IMG/VR virus record: IMGVR_UViG_2531839131_000011
DNA from: a virus
Lineage: Duplodnaviria; Heunggongvirae; Uroviricota; Caudoviricetes
Length of the DNA: 25,579 bases
Direction: 5' to 3' (one strand)
Shown: one piece after another, positions 7,412 to 25,311 of the stretch
How positions within the stretch are numbered: position 1 is the first letter of the stretch
How the letters are laid out: every line of letters begins with the position of its first letter
Notes under the pieces: generated by a model
Told to the model about the DNA's origin: nothing
Database searches by the model: none
The model's input: only the letters and a program-made list of their open reading frames with translations
Program-made: the position numbers and the translations under genes

Positions 7412-8891
7412 TAATCACCTCAATACTGACGCCACCGGGAACAAACAACGGGTTGCTGATACCGTTCCTGCGGGCCAGCCGTTGCCAGTTCCGGCTGTTT
7501 CCTGTGTAACGGTACAGGGCCACCATTGCAGGCATCGTCTCCGGCAGGCGGTGCGTTTCACTGCCCGCCAGTTGCAGCCCGCGTTTTTCCAGGTCGGCAA
7601 CAACCAGCAGACGCAGTTGTGTAAGCTGAACGCTGTCTGTCGAAAATCCCTGCTCAGATGCCGTCAGAATGACGGTATCCAGTGCAGCCCCCAGCATGGC
7701 GGCTGTTTTTCCGATATCGGACACACTTTCAAATACCGGGGGCGTGGCTGTACCACTGTCTGAAAAGGATACCTGTGAAAAGCCGCCGTCCGGGGTTATG
7801 GCAGTTAACTGTAACTGTCCCTGTGTGACGGTAGCAGATGTGCTGCTGGCCCCGCTGGCTGTGCCGGTTGTGGTGGACGGGGCATCCAGTACAGGTGCAC
7901 GGGCGGCATTATCCCTCCGGCGACTGAAATCCAGTGCCGCAGTCAGTGCCTGGCTGGCAGCTTCTGCCCGGAATGTCTGCGCCGCTGCCAGCATGACGTA
8001 GTTCAGTGTGGCAATATTTTTTTTTGCAACCGGACTGTTGTACGAGGTTGTGATTGCCCCCTGTCTGCCTGCGGTGTCGGCATGGCGACGTTCGAACCGC
8101 TGCGCCAGACGGTTCCAGGTGGAAAATGCTGTCCGGGTATCGCATAACGATGAAACGCCGGACAGCGCCCCCATCAGCGAGGAGGCCAGCATGGCAGGCT
8201 GGTTAATCAGGCTGGTCACAGAGCCTTTCATCGCAGAAAGCGATCCCATCAGACCGCTGACAGTCTGCGTAACCCCCAGATTGTCCACCGCATCACTGAT
8301 ATCATCGATAACACCGGTTACAGCTTCTATCACGGCGGTTGCCGCCGCAGTGCCATCTTTTACGGTCTGCCAGACAGAGGACAGCGTATCTCCCAGAGAA
8401 CCGGTTACAGCAACGGCCTGTGCCGGTACGACTGCACTGGTGTCTGTCTCTGCGTCCGGGGCAGTATCCTGCAACGACGGATAAACGGTAACGGTGAACG
8501 CGTAATAATTCAGTTCATCCGCTTTAGTGCGGCATTCCCATGAATCCACCATGACGTCCACAGTGCCGAAATCAGGATGTACCAGCTCACCGTTACCCGG
8601 AGCATCAAGAGCATCCATCAGCGCACCCGCTTCATCTCTGGCTGTTTCTGCGTTGCTGTTCAGAATGCAGGCGCTGAATGTACGGGAGCGAAGCTTTTTC
8701 CCCAGGTCATTGACGCCTCCGGTATCACGTAACGGGTACTCGCGTTTAACCAGGCGACGTCCGCCAGCCTGTTTTTGCTCCTCGATGACGAGAAACGGCA
8801 CGTTACGGAACGTGCCTTTGCCGGTTGTTTTCCTGCCTCCACCGGTTTTATCCCGGACAGCATTAACGGCATTTAAAGCATCTTCAAACAT
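7404..8891 (-). CDS. DNA circularization protein N-like (Mu gp43-like)
   Basis: 495 aa. ATG at 8891, 4 nt after the tape-measure stop. Synteny with Mu. Confidence 0.5.
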
Positions 8892-8895
8892 GGTT

Positions 8896-10971
8896 TTACC
8901 AGCCTGTAATGTAGTTATCGCCCGCGTAAATATTCAGCCCCATACCATCCTCGGTGACGCGGGAACTGGTCAGACGTAACCCCTCGCCAAGTTCGACGCG
9001 CAGCGAGGCTTCCGCATTGACTTTTTGTTCCTGCGGTTCCTTATCCGTGACCGTCCATTTCTGATACAGGTCGGTTACAAAACCGCCCAGATACTCCCCG
9101 GCGACACTGCCCAGCGTGGCACCGGCAACCGTACCCAGCGGTCCGGCAAGGCTGCCAACGGCACCGCCGAGCCATGCACCGGCTGTACTGCCAATTGCGC
9201 CTGCTTTTTCATGGGTTGACGCCTGCTCATCCATCAGGACGGGGGCAAGCTGGAGTGCCCCCATTACCGGGCCACCCAGACGTGACAACGCACGACCGGC
9301 ACCTTTCCCCATCCAGCCCAGCGCCCCGGCACCTTTTGTCACAACCCGACCGATCGCACTGCCTGCAAGTTTGTTTCCGATACCGGAAAACCACCCGCCA
9401 GCGGCACGCCCGGCATCAGCCAGCTTTCCGACCGCTCCCGTAACCAGTTGCCCGGCAGCACTGCCTGCAAGCCTGCTCAGAAGACCGGATTTACCGGGTA
9501 AAGGTAATGGTGCAGGCCGTGCCGTTACCGGTACGCCGGGTGGGGGTAATGCCAGAACAGGGCGTGGTGCAGGTAATGCCAGCGGCTGTGGCCCGGACAG
9601 CAATAACGGCTGGCGGGGTAACAGGGGCGTCATGCCTTTGCCTTTCCGGGTGCGACCACCACGGCCACCGCTTCCGTAACCGCCGAACCCGTGAGGCCAG
9701 TTAGTGACAAACACACGCTGAATGCCGATACCCTGCAACAGCGTCTCAGACGTCATGGCATCCGGGACCGGCAGACCTGCCTGCCCACGTTTGCGGTTTC
9801 GCATCCAGCGCCACATACGACGCCCGGTTTTAAACGGATAACTGGCAACCTGCCATGAGGGTTTTGCCACGGCCCAGCCTGCTCTCAGGGCTTTATTGGC
9901 AAGCCAGACAGACACCAGAACAGCAGCCAGTTTTTTCAGGCTGACAATATTCTGGTCAACCCATGCCAGCGCATCTTTACCCGGTTTCAGCCAGCGCCAT
10001 AATTCCTGCGCCGCGATTTTTACCTTTCTGAACGTGGTCAGGAATTTCTGACCAATGTTTTCTGCCAGTGCGTCCAGCTCCCCGGATTTATCCGCCGCAT
10101 CGTGCCAGTTAAGCACCCGGCGCATCTCGTTCTTGATTTCTTCAAAGGGGCCGCTGTTTGCCACCTTCGTGCGAAACTCAAGCAGGTTGCCCTCCATCTG
10201 GGCCATCATCCCGTCCCAGGAGTTCATGGCAGCCGCCTGTGCGCCTTCTGACTGCTCCAGCAGGGTCCGGAATACCGTCAGAATGGCTTTCTTGCCCAGC
10301 TTGCCTTTTTCACCCAGCTTACGGATTTTTTTCTCATCCTTACCCGTTGCATCTGCCAGCACCTTGTAAACGTTGATACCGTAACCGGTCAGCAGGTTGG
10401 CGTCCGCCGCCGTGATTTGCTGGCGGGCAAACATCTGTTTGAACTGTAACGAAGCCCCCTGCGCGGTGGGTAAATCCCAGCCATGCATCGCGCCCTGATT
10501 CTGTAGCATGGTGATGAACTGTTTTACCTGGGCGTCAGTCATGCCAAACGCCGTTGATGTGCGGATTTCCTGCAGAACGCCGCCCAGCCCCCAGGTGGTT
10601 TCTTTTGCGTTCTGCTTCGCCCACGCCATCATGGCCTGTGCTCTGGCCTTATCGCCGTGATACAGCGAGTTCATGGCGATAATCTGCTGCTCACGCTGGG
10701 CGGCGGCACCAATAAACAGTTTATTGGCGGTGTAACCCACGCCAGCGATACCCAGCGCCCCGGCTGACAGCATTCGGAATGTACGGGTTGACAGTGAACC
10801 CATTCTGTCAATGGCACCAGAAACGCGCACAACCTCCATACGCAGGGCACGAAGGGAACTTTGTCCGCTACGGGACAGGGCGTTTATCTGGTTCGAATAC
10901 TCGCGGGAACGCCGGGAAAGATTGCCATTAAGATCAATAATGACAGACGCCTTTAAGCGTTTCCCGGTCAT
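8896..10971 (-). CDS. Tail tape measure protein
   Basis: About 692 aa from ATG 10971 (AGGA 7 nt upstream). N-terminal helical region, Pro-rich repeats, Gly/Ala-rich C-terminal half. The ORF-track start at 11064 adds 31 non-protein-like residues and overlaps a promoter-like motif. Confidence 0.75.
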
Positions 10972-15092: not shown

Positions 15093-16010
15093 TTACAGGT
15101 AGTCAGCGACAACCAGTTGCAGCTTGCCCTTCATCTCGTTGGAGACGGTGGTATTGCCATCCGCGAACAGTTCACGGTTAAGCAGTTGCTCTGCGGCTTT
15201 TTCCAGCCCGACCGGTACAACGATATGCGTCGGCTTCAGGCCCAGCTTCTTACCGCCATCACCTTCAAAAGAGCGCATCAGTTGCCAGCCCTTCCAGAGG
15301 TTATCCAGCGTCAGATCGCCTTTTACCGCGACAGCCATCTGCCAGAAGCCGTAACCGGCAGCACGCCGGGCGCTGGCACCAAACAGGAACTCGTTATCCA
15401 TAAAAACGTGGTCGTCATCGATACGGGTACGTGCGACCAGTTCGGGTTTGCGGCGCTCCTGGAAAATCAGCGGTTTGACTGCGCGGGAGCAGTCCAGCAG
15501 ATAGAACGGCAGACCACTGAAGCTGTCCTGTTCAACGATGTTGGAGGTATTCTTTACGTCGCCCGTGCCGTCCACATTCGGATATACCGGATGCTCCTTG
15601 TCGAAGAAGTTCTGACCGTCATAGCAGTGCTGGGTAAAGCCATCTTTCAGAAGTTTAAAAATCAGCTCATCCGGCTGAACTGCCGCAGAACGCCCCATCT
15701 CCTGAAAAATCGGCGCATAAATACCCAGATTGTCATCCTCGAAGTCATCACGGGAAATACCCACGGTGCCTTCAAACGTTTTATTGGCGATGGAGTAGCC
15801 ATGCGCTTGCATTTGCTGAATGGTTCGCTTACCCACCCATTCTTTCAGGGTCGGGAATTTACCCAGCCAGCCATAGGTATTGCTGCGGGTGGAAGAGTTC
15901 ACCACCATTGCAATTCTGCTGTACTGCGACGGGGCGTCTTCAAGACCGCCCTGAAAATCCTTACGCCAGGAGGTCATCAGGGCTTTAATGGATGCCGGGG
16001 TGACAATCAT
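15093..16010 (-). CDS. T: Major capsid protein
   Basis: 305 aa. Size and position (after protease/scaffold) and sequence are typical of the Mu T family. ATGA overlap with I. Confidence 0.85.
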   Translation of the reverse strand: MIVTPASIKALMTSWRKDFQGGLEDAPSQYSRIAMVVNSSTRSNTYGWLGKFPTLKEWVGKRTIQQMQAHGYSIANKTFEGTVGISRDDFEDDNLGIYAPIFQEMGRSAAVQPDELIFKLLKDGFTQHCYDGQNFFDKEHPVYPNVDGTGDVKNTSNIVEQDSFSGLPFYLLDCSRAVKPLIFQERRKPELVARTRIDDDHVFMDNEFLFGASARRAAGYGFWQMAVAVKGDLTLDNLWKGWQLMRSFEGDGGKKLGLKPTHIVVPVGLEKAAEQLLNRELFADGNTTVSNEMKGKLQLVVADYL

Positions 16011-17092
16011 TTTTCTTGTTCCTGTTTCATTTTCAGATACTCAGCCTCAGTAATGCCGAGCGCCTTCACTGCTGCCTGTTCATCAGCAGACAGCACCGCC
16101 ACCGCCGGTTTTTCCTGTGACGGTTTTTTCGCTGTGGTGGTCTGCATGGCAGATAACGCAGCGATGGGCTGTTTTTCCTCAAGCTGTGCCGACAGTGCCG
16201 CCACGCCAATCTGACCGCCAAGCTGTTCCAGGTAAGTGCGTTCGCTTTTGAAAATGCGGCCTTCCTGTTCCGCCTTGTCCAGAACGGCGCTCAGGCTGGC
16301 TGCGGCGCTTTGTGCAGTCGCCTGTGCCAGTTCATCACGCAGGGCGTTGTAGCTTTCCACCGGGACGTATTTCGTCAGGTCAACGGCGGCTTTCTGTGCC
16401 TTTTCCAGTTCGGCGGATAACGACGCCACTTTTCCGGCATCTGTTTCGAGCGCATCAAGCGCACTCAGGGCCGCACTGGCCTGTTCATCGGTGATGTCTG
16501 CATTTTCGGGGACCGTCACTCCAAGACGCGCAAGCAGCTTGCGCAGCGTTTCATTCATGGGTTTGTTCTCCTGTTGAAGGATGTCGGGAAGGTCTGCCGC
16601 CAGTGCGGTCAGCTTTTTCATGCCGGTGGCACCGGGGTCATTGGTCAGCGCAGCAAGGCGGATTTGCAGCACCGCACCGGTGGCGGTGTCATACGGAAAA
16701 ACCGCAGAGAGATAACCAAATTCGCCGTCATCGATGCGCTGCTGCGCCGCCGCCGTCCAGCGTGGGTGGATAAATAATCCTTCACCTTCACGCCACTGCA
16801 TTTCATCGGCGTTAAACCAGCCAGCCGCGACGAGTTGTTCCGGGGGTAATCCTTTGTCCTTACGTAGCTGGTTATGCTCGTAATCAATCAGTACGTCCTG
16901 GTTGAGCGCGCGAACGCCTTCAACCAGACGCCCGGCAATCTCACCGTCGATGAACCACCCCTGACCACCTGTCACATCAAACGGGCGACCATCACGGGCA
17001 CTGAAATGACCGGCAGGCAATAGCTGGCACCAGCCGTCATCGTCAATGGACAGCGCACTCAGTGCGGCAATGCCAATCGCGTGTTTTTTCAT
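16007..17092 (-). CDS. I: Head maturation protease / scaffold protein I
   Basis: 361 aa. N-terminal protease-like half and Ala/Gln/Glu-rich coiled-coil C-terminal half. First gene after the G-I gap. Confidence 0.8.
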   Translation of the reverse strand: MKKHAIGIAALSALSIDDDGWCQLLPAGHFSARDGRPFDVTGGQGWFIDGEIAGRLVEGVRALNQDVLIDYEHNQLRKDKGLPPEQLVAAGWFNADEMQWREGEGLFIHPRWTAAAQQRIDDGEFGYLSAVFPYDTATGAVLQIRLAALTNDPGATGMKKLTALAADLPDILQQENKPMNETLRKLLARLGVTVPENADITDEQASAALSALDALETDAGKVASLSAELEKAQKAAVDLTKYVPVESYNALRDELAQATAQSAAASLSAVLDKAEQEGRIFKSERTYLEQLGGQIGVAALSAQLEEKQPIAALSAMQTTTAKKPSQEKPAVAVLSADEQAAVKALGITEAEYLKMKQEQEK

Positions 17093-17109
17093 GTCCTGCT
17101 GCTCATCAT

Positions 17110-17147
17110 GGTTTGTGAGCAGTCAGTTTGCGGGAGGTGCGGGAAAA
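17110..17147 (-). promoter_or_regulatory. Candidate C-dependent late promoter P-I
   Basis: Minus strand CCCGCACCTCCCGC AAACT GACTGC about 25-55 nt upstream of the I start. Same CCCGCACCT...GACTGC element as upstream of lys. Confidence 0.45.
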
Positions 17148-17288
17148 TCTGGGGTTATGCTATTTGAGTACTGGAGAAAGAAAGTGGAAGGAAGATAAAA
17201 CGGGATTCATACACCGTTAAATACCGGTTTAAAAATCCCGTGGCGCGTTTTAAAAAATCTGTGCAGCTGATTTTATGCCTGATTCTGT
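17148..17288. other. Non-coding G-I spacer; candidate strong gyrase site
   Basis: Largest non-coding gap in the operon. Relatively AT-rich. Position matches the Mu genome centre, where a strong gyrase site between G and I has been described. Confidence 0.4.
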
Positions 17289-17759
17289 TTATTGCCTCAG
17301 AGCGGCGCTGACGCGTTTTCTGATGGCATCAAAAATTTCCTGTTCCCCGGTCTTATCCAGCCCCATATAAGGACGCGCAGGAACGCCTGCCGGGCGGGGT
17401 GCCATATCGGGTGTACCGCCCCACTGATGAATGGCAGCATAAATTTTTGGCGAACCAATCAGGGCATAATCCTGTCCATAATCGGTGGTAATACTGCGTG
17501 CCAGATCGCCATGCAGGGTAAGAATACTGCCCGGAACAAAACCATGATCCTGACGCCATGTCTGCCACGAATCGCTCCATGCTTCCCAGCCTTTCCCTGT
17601 ATCCGGGTCTGCCTGCCGTTCAAATGCCTGTTCCGTGGATGACAGCAGCGCCGCAGACATCACACGGGGAATGGCGCGGTCACGTGTGACGGTTCCCAGT
17701 TCATCCAGCGCAAGCTGAATACGTCGCACATCCACGGCAACGTTCATATCAAGACTCAC
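17289..17759 (-). CDS. G: Virion morphogenesis protein G (Mu gp31-like)
   Basis: 156 aa. GTG start at 17759 with GGAGG Shine-Dalgarno 7 nt upstream, overlapping the F stop. Confidence 0.55.
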   Translation of the reverse strand: MSLDMNVAVDVRRIQLALDELGTVTRDRAIPRVMSAALLSSTEQAFERQADPDTGKGWEAWSDSWQTWRQDHGFVPGSILTLHGDLARSITTDYGQDYALIGSPKIYAAIHQWGGTPDMAPRPAGVPARPYMGLDKTGEQEIFDAIRKRVSAALRQ

Positions 17760-19075
17760 TTATTCACCTCCACATGCCCCTCCAGTACGTCAATCATCCC
17801 GTCAGCAATCGCGGCTTCAAGCGACTGTGCAGATACGCGGCTGATACTGACCAGCACATCCGCCCGGTCATTCTGTTTGCTGACAGCCTGCGATGTTCTG
17901 ACCACAACTTTTGCAGTGCCGTCGCGGGTTGCCACAACATACAGCAACTGGTGGTTCTCCCTGTCCCACAATACCGCCTGTGGTTTTGCCATCAGCGACG
18001 GCAGACGCTGTAAATCTTCCGGTTTCAGGGCGGCATCAGCAGTGGTCGCCAGACTTTTCCCGTTCATCACAAGCAGACGGGCTGGCATATTCCCGGTGCG
18101 CTGATGTACGGCTTCAGCCACGGATCCCGTCATAAAACCCAGCGCCCGGATTTCATGACCGGTCTGATGTGATCCTGCCAGGCGTTTAAGCCAGAGGGAA
18201 AAAGCAAGCTGACGCTCCCGGCTGTTATTCAGCGTCTGCACAACCTGCTCACGCAGCTGCGCGTCGTGAATTTCCACCAGTTTTCGAATCAGTGCCTGAT
18301 CCGTACCAAAAGCTGCCGAACCGGGGTTATATGACCAGCCCACATCCGGCGTCATTTTTACCTGACCGTTGTCAAACGTGGTTGACGATGTGCGGAAAAT
18401 CTCGCCGGTGCTTTCATCCGTACCGGCATCCACTTCGCGGGTATTCATGAATGACGCACCATAACTGACCTGTAGCCCCAGTTCTTTCATGCGGGCCGCA
18501 GACAGCGCCCGGACGCGACAGCGGCAGCGCCAGCCGTTCGGCGGGTAATGCGTCTGCCAGAAAATGTCGTCATACCGGAAAACCACATTGTGCAGCCGCG
18601 CATGTTCCGGGCGCGTTCTGCTGTCCATAACGGCGACATACTGCCAGTACGGATACAGGTCCGCCGTGTTCATCATCTGCGCATAACGTCCCGCCGCATA
18701 TGCTGTACGGGTGTTGACGTCATAAATGGTTGCCAGACGACGCGGACTGCCCAGCTCAATTTTCTTCGCGTTTCCGTCTGTATCCACGATGATTTGTTTT
18801 CCCCACCATCCGAGTTTTTGCAGCCGGGGGGCCAGTGTGCGGGTAAATTCCTCACGGGTGATACCTTCACTGACAGCCCGCTCCACTTCCTCACGGATTG
18901 TGGTCAGTACATCCATCCGGGTGGCTTTGGCAACGGTAAAGGCGCGGGCGTGCGCGTCTGCCAGTTGTTCGTACCAGTTCCAGGTGATGTTGTAGCCTTT
19001 GGCGCGGAAATACGCGACAGCCTCCTTTGGCGGGAGGCGTGCGGCATACGCCAGATCAATGGTCTGCTGCGGCAT
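17756..19075 (-). CDS. F: Head morphogenesis protein F (Mu gp30-like)
   Basis: About 439 aa from ATG 19075. The ORF-track start at 19111 is a GTG with no Shine-Dalgarno. Lies just after the portal gene. Confidence 0.65.
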   Translation of the reverse strand: MPQQTIDLAYAARLPPKEAVAYFRAKGYNITWNWYEQLADAHARAFTVAKATRMDVLTTIREEVERAVSEGITREEFTRTLAPRLQKLGWWGKQIIVDTDGNAKKIELGSPRRLATIYDVNTRTAYAAGRYAQMMNTADLYPYWQYVAVMDSRTRPEHARLHNVVFRYDDIFWQTHYPPNGWRCRCRVRALSAARMKELGLQVSYGASFMNTREVDAGTDESTGEIFRTSSTTFDNGQVKMTPDVGWSYNPGSAAFGTDQALIRKLVEIHDAQLREQVVQTLNNSRERQLAFSLWLKRLAGSHQTGHEIRALGFMTGSVAEAVHQRTGNMPARLLVMNGKSLATTADAALKPEDLQRLPSLMAKPQAVLWDRENHQLLYVVATRDGTAKVVVRTSQAVSKQNDRADVLVSISRVSAQSLEAAIADGMIDVLEGHVEVNK

Positions 19076-23916: not shown

Positions 23917-24163
23917 GATGTTCTGTCTCGTCTGCCAGCCGTGCGGCACGATTTGCGGCACGGATAGCGGAAAATACCTGCATCGTCTGTTCCTGACCGT
24001 GTAACAACCATTCAGCAGTGTGGCGGGCCTGTTGCTCCGTCTGTAATTCACGGCGCAGCGTCTGGTTATCGTGGCAGGTGCTGTCCAGCCTGTGCCACAA
24101 CACCCCGGACAGAACGGCGGCAAACACGGCAGCCAGCAGTAAACTTTTACTGGCGAAGGTCAT
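23777..24163 (-). CDS. Inner-membrane spanin
   Basis: 128 aa. N-terminal transmembrane segment LLLAAVFAAVLSGVLW, then charged helical periplasmic domain. Starts 17 nt before the lysozyme stop. Confidence 0.6.
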   Translation of the reverse strand: MTFASKSLLLAAVFAAVLSGVLWHRLDSTCHDNQTLRRELQTEQQARHTAEWLLHGQEQTMQVFSAIRAANRAARLADETEHHDAKQKITTAITGDNCSTRPVPAVAADRLRELEKRTRAIGGAPARN

Positions 24164-24665
24164 CCGCCCCCCTGATATTCCAGATAGCCATTTCCACTTC
24201 GCGACGGTTCATCAGTCCTTTCCATTTATGGCCTGCGGCAAACACCCAGCGGGCCATCTGGTCACGCGCTCCGGCGTAATCACCGGCATTGAGTTTTTTC
24301 AGCAGCGTTGATTTACTGAATGCGGTAACACCGGTGTTGAAAATAAACGTTGCCAGCGCCGTTTTCTGATATGGCGTCAGCGGCACCCTGACAAGACGAT
24401 CGATTGCCGCATAAACCGGTTTTAAATCACTGTCGAGAAGAGCCATACACTCCGCATGGCTGTAACGGCGCATTTCGATATCCGGCCCGGTATGTCCCAC
24501 ACAGACCGTAAGCACACCGGCAATATCGCGGTAAGGCATATAAGCGATATTTTCCAGATGGATCAGAGACTGACGGGTCATTTCCTGATAACCACCCACA
24601 CCGCCACCGGCAATCGTTGCCGCCAGCAGTGCGGCTTTCAGTTTTTTTGGTATCCCCGCCATCAT
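24147..24665 (-). CDS. lys: Endolysin, T4-lysozyme-like with N-terminal SAR-type segment
   Basis: 172 aa. E-x8-D-x5-T catalytic pattern (LENIAYMPYRDIAGVLT). N-terminal Gly/Ala-rich weakly hydrophobic segment KKLKAALLAATIAGGGVGG. Confidence 0.85.
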   Translation of the reverse strand: MMAGIPKKLKAALLAATIAGGGVGGYQEMTRQSLIHLENIAYMPYRDIAGVLTVCVGHTGPDIEMRRYSHAECMALLDSDLKPVYAAIDRLVRVPLTPYQKTALATFIFNTGVTAFSKSTLLKKLNAGDYAGARDQMARWVFAAGHKWKGLMNRREVEMAIWNIRGADDLRQ

Positions 24666-24685
24666 GCTTCCCTGAAAAAATGCGC

Positions 24686-24725
24686 TGATGGCAGTCTAAA
24701 AAATCAGATGGCAGGTGCGGGATTA
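24686..24725 (-). promoter_or_regulatory. Candidate C-dependent late promoter P-lys
   Basis: Minus strand CCCGCACCTGCC ... TTTTTTAGACTGCC between the C terminator and the lys start. Confidence 0.5.
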
Positions 24726-24735
24726 TGGTGACAGG

Positions 24736-24762
24736 AAATAACCGGCAGGATGCCGGTTATTT
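24736..24762 (-). terminator. Intrinsic terminator of the middle (C) transcript
   Basis: Perfect stem aaataaccggca / tgccggttattt with 3-nt loop. The C stop codon lies inside it. Followed on the minus strand by a short U-rich run. Confidence 0.6.
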
Positions 24763-25179
24763 TGGGCTTTCAGGTGAGAACAGATCAGGCTGATGACGTC
24801 GTGTATGCAGCTTTCTCTGGCGGGCAATAATCTGGTAGATCTGCGGCTGGGACAGGCGATACTGGCGACGCAGTTCTTCCATGTTACGACCATTGAACTG
24901 GCAGTAAAGCAAATCGTCGCGTAACGCGGTCAGGATCGTATCGCCGCAGGGGATGTAAAACTGCCGCCCGCCCAGAAAACAGGACAGGGCAACGGCCTGT
25001 TTACGGGCAAGCTCACGGGGATTGCTGACGTTCTGGCGTTTCAGTTCGTTTTCCAGAATATCAATCAGATCAACCACTGAACGGGGCCAGCGTGATTCCA
25101 GTTCCGGGGCCGGGATGTTATCAATATGCCCGATTAACTGGCGAATTGCCGGATCGTGTTCAAATAAATCATGCTGCAT
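24757..25179 (-). CDS. C: Late-gene transcriptional activator C (Mor/C family)
   Basis: 140 aa. Sits directly upstream of the lysis genes, separated by terminator and promoter. Confidence 0.8.
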   Translation of the reverse strand: MQHDLFEHDPAIRQLIGHIDNIPAPELESRWPRSVVDLIDILENELKRQNVSNPRELARKQAVALSCFLGGRQFYIPCGDTILTALRDDLLYCQFNGRNMEELRRQYRLSQPQIYQIIARQRKLHTRRHQPDLFSPESPK

Positions 25180-25191
25180 ATTTTCCCCCGG

Positions 25192-25311
25192 TTAACAGAC
25201 AAAAAGATACACCACGGCACTGATGGTTATCAGAACCACAAGGGCAATCACTTTTATCGCATTAATCAGCGTGGACGGCCCGAAACATTCATCACTGAAT
25301 TTTCTGTACAT
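25192..25311 (-). CDS. Small single-pass membrane peptide (39 aa), middle operon
   Basis: MYRKFSDECFGPSTLINAIKVIALVVLITISAVVYLFVC. AAAGGGG Shine-Dalgarno. Stop is 12 nt before the C start. Too short for the ORF track. Confidence 0.4.
   Translation of the reverse strand: MYRKFSDECFGPSTLINAIKVIALVVLITISAVVYLFVC

Follow-up and report, generated by a model that had tools for sequence, protein, structure and literature searches.

Two known C-dependent late promoters of a Mu-type phage: in-register ATAA and -10 elements, an out-of-register 10-bp repeat, and a tentative hairpin at the lys and I translation starts

The stretch of DNA analyzed here (the window; 25,579 nucleotides) belongs to a Mu-type phage in reverse orientation, with 98 to 99% identity to Mu at both of the sites considered below; D108, SfMu, and related phages also match both regions at 98 to 99%. 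Gene C (24757..25179, minus strand) codes for the late transcription activator, a protein of 140 aa that is 98.6 to 99.3% identical to C of Mu and D108. Between gene C and lys, the SAR endolysin gene (a 172-aa ORF at 24665..24147 on the minus strand, preceded by ...CACCATAATCCCGCACCTGCCATCTGATTTTTTAGACTGCCATCAGC...), lies Plys, the C-dependent late promoter of the lysis/head operon (24673..24739, minus strand). Upstream of the protease gene I (a 361-aa ORF at 17092..16007 on the minus strand, preceded by ...AGCATAACCCCAGATTTTCCCGCACCTCCCGCAAACTGACTGCTCACAAACC...) lies PI, the C-dependent late promoter of the head operon (17105..17171, minus strand). Both are 67-bp segments equivalent to those annotated in the Mu record AF083977: the feature at 10403..10469 (“Late promoter activated by C, PMID 2522923”) maps to 24739..24673 of the window, and that at 17977..18043 (“late promoter, PMID 2522923”) maps to 17171..17105 with an identical sequence. 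Given the Mu-level identity, the late promoters annotated there in the Mu record, and the match of the C protein, the stretch 24686-24725 (minus strand) is the core of Plys and 17110-17147 (minus strand) is the core of PI. The names lys, I, and C that the initial annotation had given to the genes around the two sites are borne out by the Mu record and by the C protein match.

In keeping with this identification, PI is identical to its Mu counterpart across the 67-bp segment, and Plys differs at three positions (GCCATC and AGCGCA in the window versus GCCACC and AGAGAA in Mu). As in Mu, the C gene is adjacent, the ATAA box and its spacing from the -10 hexamer are the same, and a -35 hexamer is missing, so that nothing of substance differs. 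The same record annotates two further late promoters, upstream of P (PP) and of com/mom (Pmom). A third promoter of this C-dependent late class in the window is PP (7746..7812, minus strand), located within gene N some 335 bp ahead of the start of P, and its box and -10 hexamer are kept in relatives despite the coding constraint. Past the C stop codon and abutting Plys, a stem-loop of the form CCGGCA-TCC-TGCCGG followed by TTATTT (24742..24756, minus strand) is the terminator of the middle (C) transcript. It was read from the sequence and was missed by a simple scan, and a TransTermHP terminator is annotated at the equivalent place in the Mu record. Plys of the window also contains an 8-bp direct repeat, CTGCCATC, at 24714..24707 and 24694..24687 (minus strand), with the copies 20 bp apart and both complementary to the lys start region; the first copy reads CTGCCACC in reference Mu and CTGTCACC in other Mu-group contigs. 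A separate feature of the G-I intergenic region (about 17290..17200, minus strand) is a set of repeated TTTAAAC(G)-like motifs (TTTTTTAAAACGCG...ATTTTTAAACCGG...ATTTAACGG). Such motifs occur upstream of I in all relatives (including L046-L065), down to 50% protein identity, and the gyrase cut site of the Mu record maps to about 17268 of the window, within the region that bears them.

The architecture of these promoters has been worked out largely in Mu. C binds a 16-bp imperfect dyad centered at -43.5, in promoters with a -10 hexamer and without a -35 hexamer; in Plys, the region -52..-34 and the -10 region are required, and the bases immediately downstream of the dyad matter (PMC2582627). The consensus of the C box has been given as TTAT-N5-6-ATAA (PMC12867686), and the structure of a complex with Pmom has C directly upstream of a non-optimal -35 element (2025 cryo-EM preprint). 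For the Mu promoters, which are near-identical to these, a requirement for C has been demonstrated both in vitro and in vivo (PMC4461284, PMC2582627). The start sites, footprints, and C dependence used here come from the literature, the start sites and the -52..-34 limit at second hand through later papers, and the identity of the sites, their register, and the conservation pattern are established in this analysis. A close parallel is the Mor-dependent middle promoter Pm of Mu, a sigma-70 promoter that likewise depends on an activator, homologous to C, and has an imperfect dyad directly preceding a poor -35 element; Pm differs in having its own box sequence and activator, and it lies outside the window.

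The four annotated 67-mers (Plys, PI, PP, and Pmom) align without gaps, with ATAA at columns 14-17 of each. The hexamers TAGACT (Plys), CAAACT (PI), TATCCT (PP), and TAAGAT (Pmom) lie exactly 24 bp past ATAA. The published lys, I, and P promoter oligonucleotides were built with 20 nt downstream of the S1-mapped start (PMC4461284), and counting back from this design places +1 at the seventh base after the hexamer in each of the three. The Plys start thus falls at 24686 +/- 1 nt (minus strand), in agreement with the dyad center at -43.5, and the PI start at about 17118 (minus strand). In this register the C-binding dyad of Plys (TTCCTGTCACCATAAT; 24722..24737, minus strand) spans -51..-36, and its right half-site ATAA lies at 24726..24723 (minus strand). 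In PI, ATAA (17158..17155, -40..-37) together with the CCCC after it (17151..17158, minus strand) is what truly corresponds to ATAATCCC of Plys. Both promoters have an exact right half-site and an imperfect left half, as published. The bases after ATAA follow the form Y-C-M-C in Plys (ATAATCCC), in PI (ATAACCCC), and in PP, which reads ATAACCCC...TATCCT with the same ATAA-N24-hexamer geometry. The -10 hexamers are TAGACT at 24693..24698 in Plys and CAAACT at 17125..17130 in PI (both minus strand), the relatives having NAAAAT or CACACT at the same spacing in the latter case. The -35 position is taken by CCCGCA in Plys and CCCCAG in PI, and a consensus scan found no complete sigma-70 promoter at either. 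In the 25.6 kb of the window, both strands included, the composite pattern ATAAYCMC-N20-NANNNT has no matches other than Plys, PI, and PP (0.11 matches expected); having been built from these promoters, it is informative only in its specificity.

Against this register, the strings that had first drawn attention to the two sites can be placed. The 9-mer CCCGCACCT is indeed present where the initial annotation had quoted it, on the minus strand at 24721..24713 upstream of lys and 17143..17135 upstream of I, and these are its only two copies when both strands of the window are searched. The match is in fact one base longer, a 10-mer, TCCCGCACCT, at 24722..24713 and 17144..17135 (minus strand), with two copies against 0.11 expected; as many as two were reached in 1 of 100 shuffles. 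A common substring of at least 10 bp between the two 67-bp promoter segments arises in 0.5% of 20,000 dinucleotide shuffles, which places the 10-mer beyond chance for this pair of promoters, a pair picked after the fact. Neither part of the motif is enriched by itself in the window: the 9-mer with one mismatch is found 9 times against 7.8 expected, and GACTGC 12 times against 13.8. The composite of CCCGCACCT, a gap, and GACTGC occurs only at these two sites, with gaps measured at 16 nt (lys) and 10 nt (I); the spacings of 13 and 5 nt given earlier were miscounts. The 10-bp match itself is on record, having been underlined in the same two promoters, with no function assigned, in Fig. 1B of Swapna, Kumari & Nagaraja 2015 (PMC4461284). 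Plys, PI, their C dependence, and the match are thus all already in the literature. What goes beyond that work is the quantification of the displacement of TCCCGCACCT by 10 bp and of its nonconservation in relatives.

In Plys the 10-mer covers -36..-27 and abuts the C box, its 9-mer portion (24713..24721, minus strand; -35..-27) standing in place of the missing -35 hexamer with only CCC (-35..-33) falling in conserved columns. In PI it covers -26..-17 (17135..17144, minus strand), within the spacer and 10 bp downstream of its position in Plys. GACTGC, for its part, lies at -10..-5 in Plys (24696..24691, minus strand), where it comprises the last four bases of TAGACT plus GC, and at -6..-1 in PI (17119..17124, minus strand), between the -10 hexamer and the start, where it forms part of the 5' arm of a predicted hairpin discussed below. 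Comparison with the Mu late promoters, which the initial annotation had suggested as a check, therefore brings ATAA and the -10 hexamer into register and leaves the 9-mer and GACTGC displaced by 10 and 4 bp, respectively. Displacements of this kind imply that they are not equivalent elements of one sigma-70/activator geometry. The combination of 9-mer and GACTGC has no fixed position relative to the start in Plys and PI, and it is absent from PP and Pmom. Of the shared C-dependent architecture that had been read into these strings, one half stands, in that both promoters are activator dependent and served by the adjacent C according to the Mu annotation. The other half does not, in that the 9-mer and GACTGC, being out of register, do not define that architecture. 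The original observation is thus partly confirmed and its first interpretation partly supported.

One way to bring GACTGC back into register would be to take CTGACT (17126..17121) as the -10 hexamer of PI, aligned to TAGACT of Plys, with GACTGC as a common -10/discriminator element. The two hexamers would then have GACT in common, with T at position 6. Such a hexamer, however, would lie 28 bp from ATAA rather than the 24 bp seen in Plys, PP, Pmom, and every relative. The relatives conserve NAAAAT at the position of CAAACT and fail to keep GACTGC at PI, the published start lies 7 nt past CAAACT (PMC4461284), and GACTGC shows the lack of enrichment noted above. Spacing, conservation, and the published start together rule CTGACT out as the PI hexamer, and we give this reading hardly any credence. 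A second PI promoter in register with the 10-mer was likewise considered and rejected, the hexamer 24 bp on being GCTCAC, with GATT in place of ATAA.

We further scanned viral contigs, genomes, and metagenomes for the Plys, PI, and PP regions of relatives whose C, I, or P proteins are about 50 to 77% identical. The genome scan yielded 5 C-lys loci and the metagenome scan 11, with no lineage beyond those from the viral contigs; the phage collection held no C protein between 95% and 40% identity. All relatives have a half-site (ATAA, GGAA, or GTAA), C-rich bases, and a hexamer 24 bp on, the last of these reading NAAAAT, TATTCT, TATCCT, TAATAT, or TAGTCT. When 16 promoters of relatives are anchored and aligned, the box, which keeps ATAA, carries high information, as do -35..-33, -11, and -7, and the columns of ATAA-Y-C-M-C are conserved. 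The columns occupied by the PI 9-mer average 0.28 bit each in the same alignment. The 10-mer TCCCGCACCT is absent from PI of seven of the relatives (L034, L046, L052, L054, L056, L061, and L064), and in PI of L044 it carries two internal substitutions, with the box and the -10 hexamer intact. It is invariant in all other Mu-group copies sampled, that is, in all except L044 and L034, which says little since the copies are so similar overall.

These data bear on the possibility that the 10-mer is a functional shared element, for instance a second contact for C, for sigma region 4, or for another factor on the same face of the DNA. The offset of 10 bp is near one helical turn and could in principle keep the same face, exact copies are confined to these two promoters with the expectation and pairwise rarity (P of about 0.005) given above, and the bases just past the dyad in Plys are reported to be important for activation (PMC2582627). 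That required region ends at -34, however, and so covers only the first bases of the 10-mer, and C bound at Pmom lies on the DNA upstream of the -35 element rather than on the spacer (2025 cryo-EM preprint). Moreover, the 10-mer has no copy in PP or Pmom, the PI copy is lost in every diverged PI lineage, with its columns at the low information stated, and the L044 copy has been altered at two positions. On balance, we consider a shared function for the 10-mer improbable. What a truly shared element looks like is seen in one lineage of relatives, with a C protein 65% identical, in which a single IMG/VR contig (L026 plus L056) has a 21-bp sequence, TCAGATACCGGAATCCCCGAT, common to Plys and PI. 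It lies over the box, in register in both promoters (L026, about 1960-1990; L056, about 1420-1450). The GGAA in its box suggests a different half-site for the C protein of that lineage. A repeat of another kind occurs downstream in some relatives, where a 9-bp unit, CCCCAAAAG (encoding Pro-Lys-Ser), is tandemly expanded directly after the start codon of the endolysin (lys homologue) gene in L027 (about four copies) and in L066 of Erwinia tracheiphila (about eight), with one copy in L026.

Taking these findings together, we propose that Plys and PI are, very probably, simply the known C-dependent promoters, that the truly shared element is ATAA-YCMC-N20-NANNNT, and that the 10-mer is a real repeat rather than a positional element. 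Both are sigma-70 promoters that, without a -35 hexamer, fire only once C has bound the imperfect dyad near -43.5. The element common to Plys, PI, PP, and Pmom is the right half-site ATAA at -40..-37, followed by the C-rich bases YCMC and by a NANNNT -10 hexamer starting exactly 24 bp past ATAA, with transcription expected to begin 7 nt beyond that hexamer. In this arrangement the 10-mer abuts the C box and fills the -35 position in Plys, and it falls one helical turn downstream, in the spacer, in PI. As to its origin, the 10-mer of PI is followed by a second CCCGCA (17134..17129), so that the stretch reading CCCGCACCT CCCGCAAAC resembles a 9-bp tandem repeat, and in relatives CCCCGC directly precedes the -10 hexamer. 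These two observations make a local 9-bp duplication plausible as the source. The 10-mer is most likely a local C-rich sequence plus a 9-bp tandem CCCGCA duplication in PI, or else the trace of an old exchange between promoters, and not a common binding site; we infer that the PI copy is without function. Our search of the literature found no mutational data for PI. A practical correction follows, in that the shared string, being out of register, is unfit for defining C-dependent promoters or for placing -10 and -35 elements. The pattern ATAA-YCMC-N20-NANNNT (with GGAA or GTAA for ATAA in related lineages) is the better search pattern and recovers exactly the three late promoters of the window.

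A different kind of constraint may act on the sequence between the -10 hexamer and +1. At both promoters these bases, GACTGC included, are complementary to the translation start region of the downstream gene. For lys, a hairpin (24656..24694, minus strand) is predicted between a 5' arm, CUGCCAUCA (24694..24686, -8..+1), and a 3' arm, UGAUGGCGG (24664..24656), which reads AUG AUG GCG G and so takes in AUG AUG of lys; this hairpin is possible only for an RNA whose start lies upstream of Plys. For I, the predicted hairpin (17096..17126, minus strand) pairs CUG.CUGCUCACA (17126..17114) with UG.UGAGCAGCAG (17108..17096) and extends into AGGA, the Shine-Dalgarno sequence of I. Its 5' arm starts inside the PI -10 hexamer, with most of the arm upstream of the PI start. 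Folding calculations accord with this geometry: the long lys RNA is predicted to fold at -16.7 kcal/mol (z, -3.3) versus -3.6 kcal/mol (z, +0.5) for the RNA from +1, and the long I RNA at -14.7 kcal/mol (z, -5.1) versus -1.5 kcal/mol from +1. Among the 29 gene starts of the window, I has the strongest structure z-score, lys the second, and C the third. The start of gene C (about 25220..25168, minus strand) has a stem of its own that takes in a GGGGG Shine-Dalgarno and the AUG (-17.6 kcal/mol; z, -2.8), and the ribosome-binding site of MuC has been described as “peculiar” and inefficient (PMC12867686).

On the strength of these predictions, it is conceivable that, in Mu-type phages, Plys and PI each form part of the 5' strand of a hairpin, one masking the start codon of lys and the other the ribosome-binding site of I, and that these hairpins act as a translational gate. 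This proposal is compatible with the reading of the promoters given above. Only transcripts initiated at Plys or PI would lack the 5' arm and be translated, whereas RNA that reads through from upstream, out of the middle (C) operon or the lys-G transcript, would stay translationally silent. GACTGC would then be constrained as a hairpin arm and not as a promoter element. Comparative data lend this some support, an arm upstream of the predicted start being paired to the Shine-Dalgarno or AUG in 15 of the 15 promoter instances examined, among them two distant relatives, a Mu-like insert in an Stx phage and Pasteurella phage Pmp9. In six relatives (L046, L052, L054, L056, L061, and L064) the I-leader hairpin is kept through compensatory changes (GGCC/GGCC, GACC/GGUC, and GGUCC/GGACC), and different but analogous hairpins are predicted at the lys start in five (L029, L026, L067, L110, and L111). 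In the last of these, Pasteurella phage Pmp9, the lys-type hairpin looks like a full terminator that ends 3 nt before the amidase AUG. When the PI leaders of relatives are aligned to a covariance model, 3 of the 10 stem pairs show compensatory changes, and 84% of cells are paired versus 22 to 37% with the partner slid. Behind this covariation stand 9 distinct sequences that could be fitted to the model; the model did not match the PI leader of the Mu group, where the stem has another register. The covariance-model alignment was used in place of RNAalifold on a MAFFT alignment, which recovered only the 6 outer pairs, owing to indels.

Several observations pull the other way. The structure z-scores become mixed when 68-nt contexts are used (+0.3 to -5.4), and only half of the I Shine-Dalgarno is paired in Mu itself. 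In a control, pairing of the ribosome-binding region with the preceding 32 nt proved common at the other genes of the window, which weakens the hairpin idea. Rfam has no family matching the lys or I leader, and such a hairpin goes unmentioned in the Mu literature searched, a set to which the 1989 mapping paper does not belong. Weighing both sides, we regard the gate as a doubtful, though not negligible, prediction, appreciably more credible than a shared function for the 10-mer.

A system of this design is familiar from phage T4. In T4, the genes e (lysozyme), soc, 49, and I-TevI have a late promoter within the 5' strand of a hairpin that sequesters the ribosome-binding site (PMC3014915; McPheeters et al. 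1986), a precedent that favors the proposal. The predicted geometry at lys and I resembles that of T4 gene e, with a transcription start within or past the 5' arm and a 3' arm over the Shine-Dalgarno or AUG, and one of the two Mu genes encodes an endolysin. The systems differ in that the T4 promoters depend on gp55/gp33 and those of Mu on sigma-70 plus C, and in that the Mu case is predicted, with mixed computational support. If true, it would amount to an independent reinvention of the safeguard against premature lysis seen in T4 gene e; if confirmed, it would add a translational layer to the control of Mu late genes, and the strategy of T4 gene e would gain a second case of independent origin.
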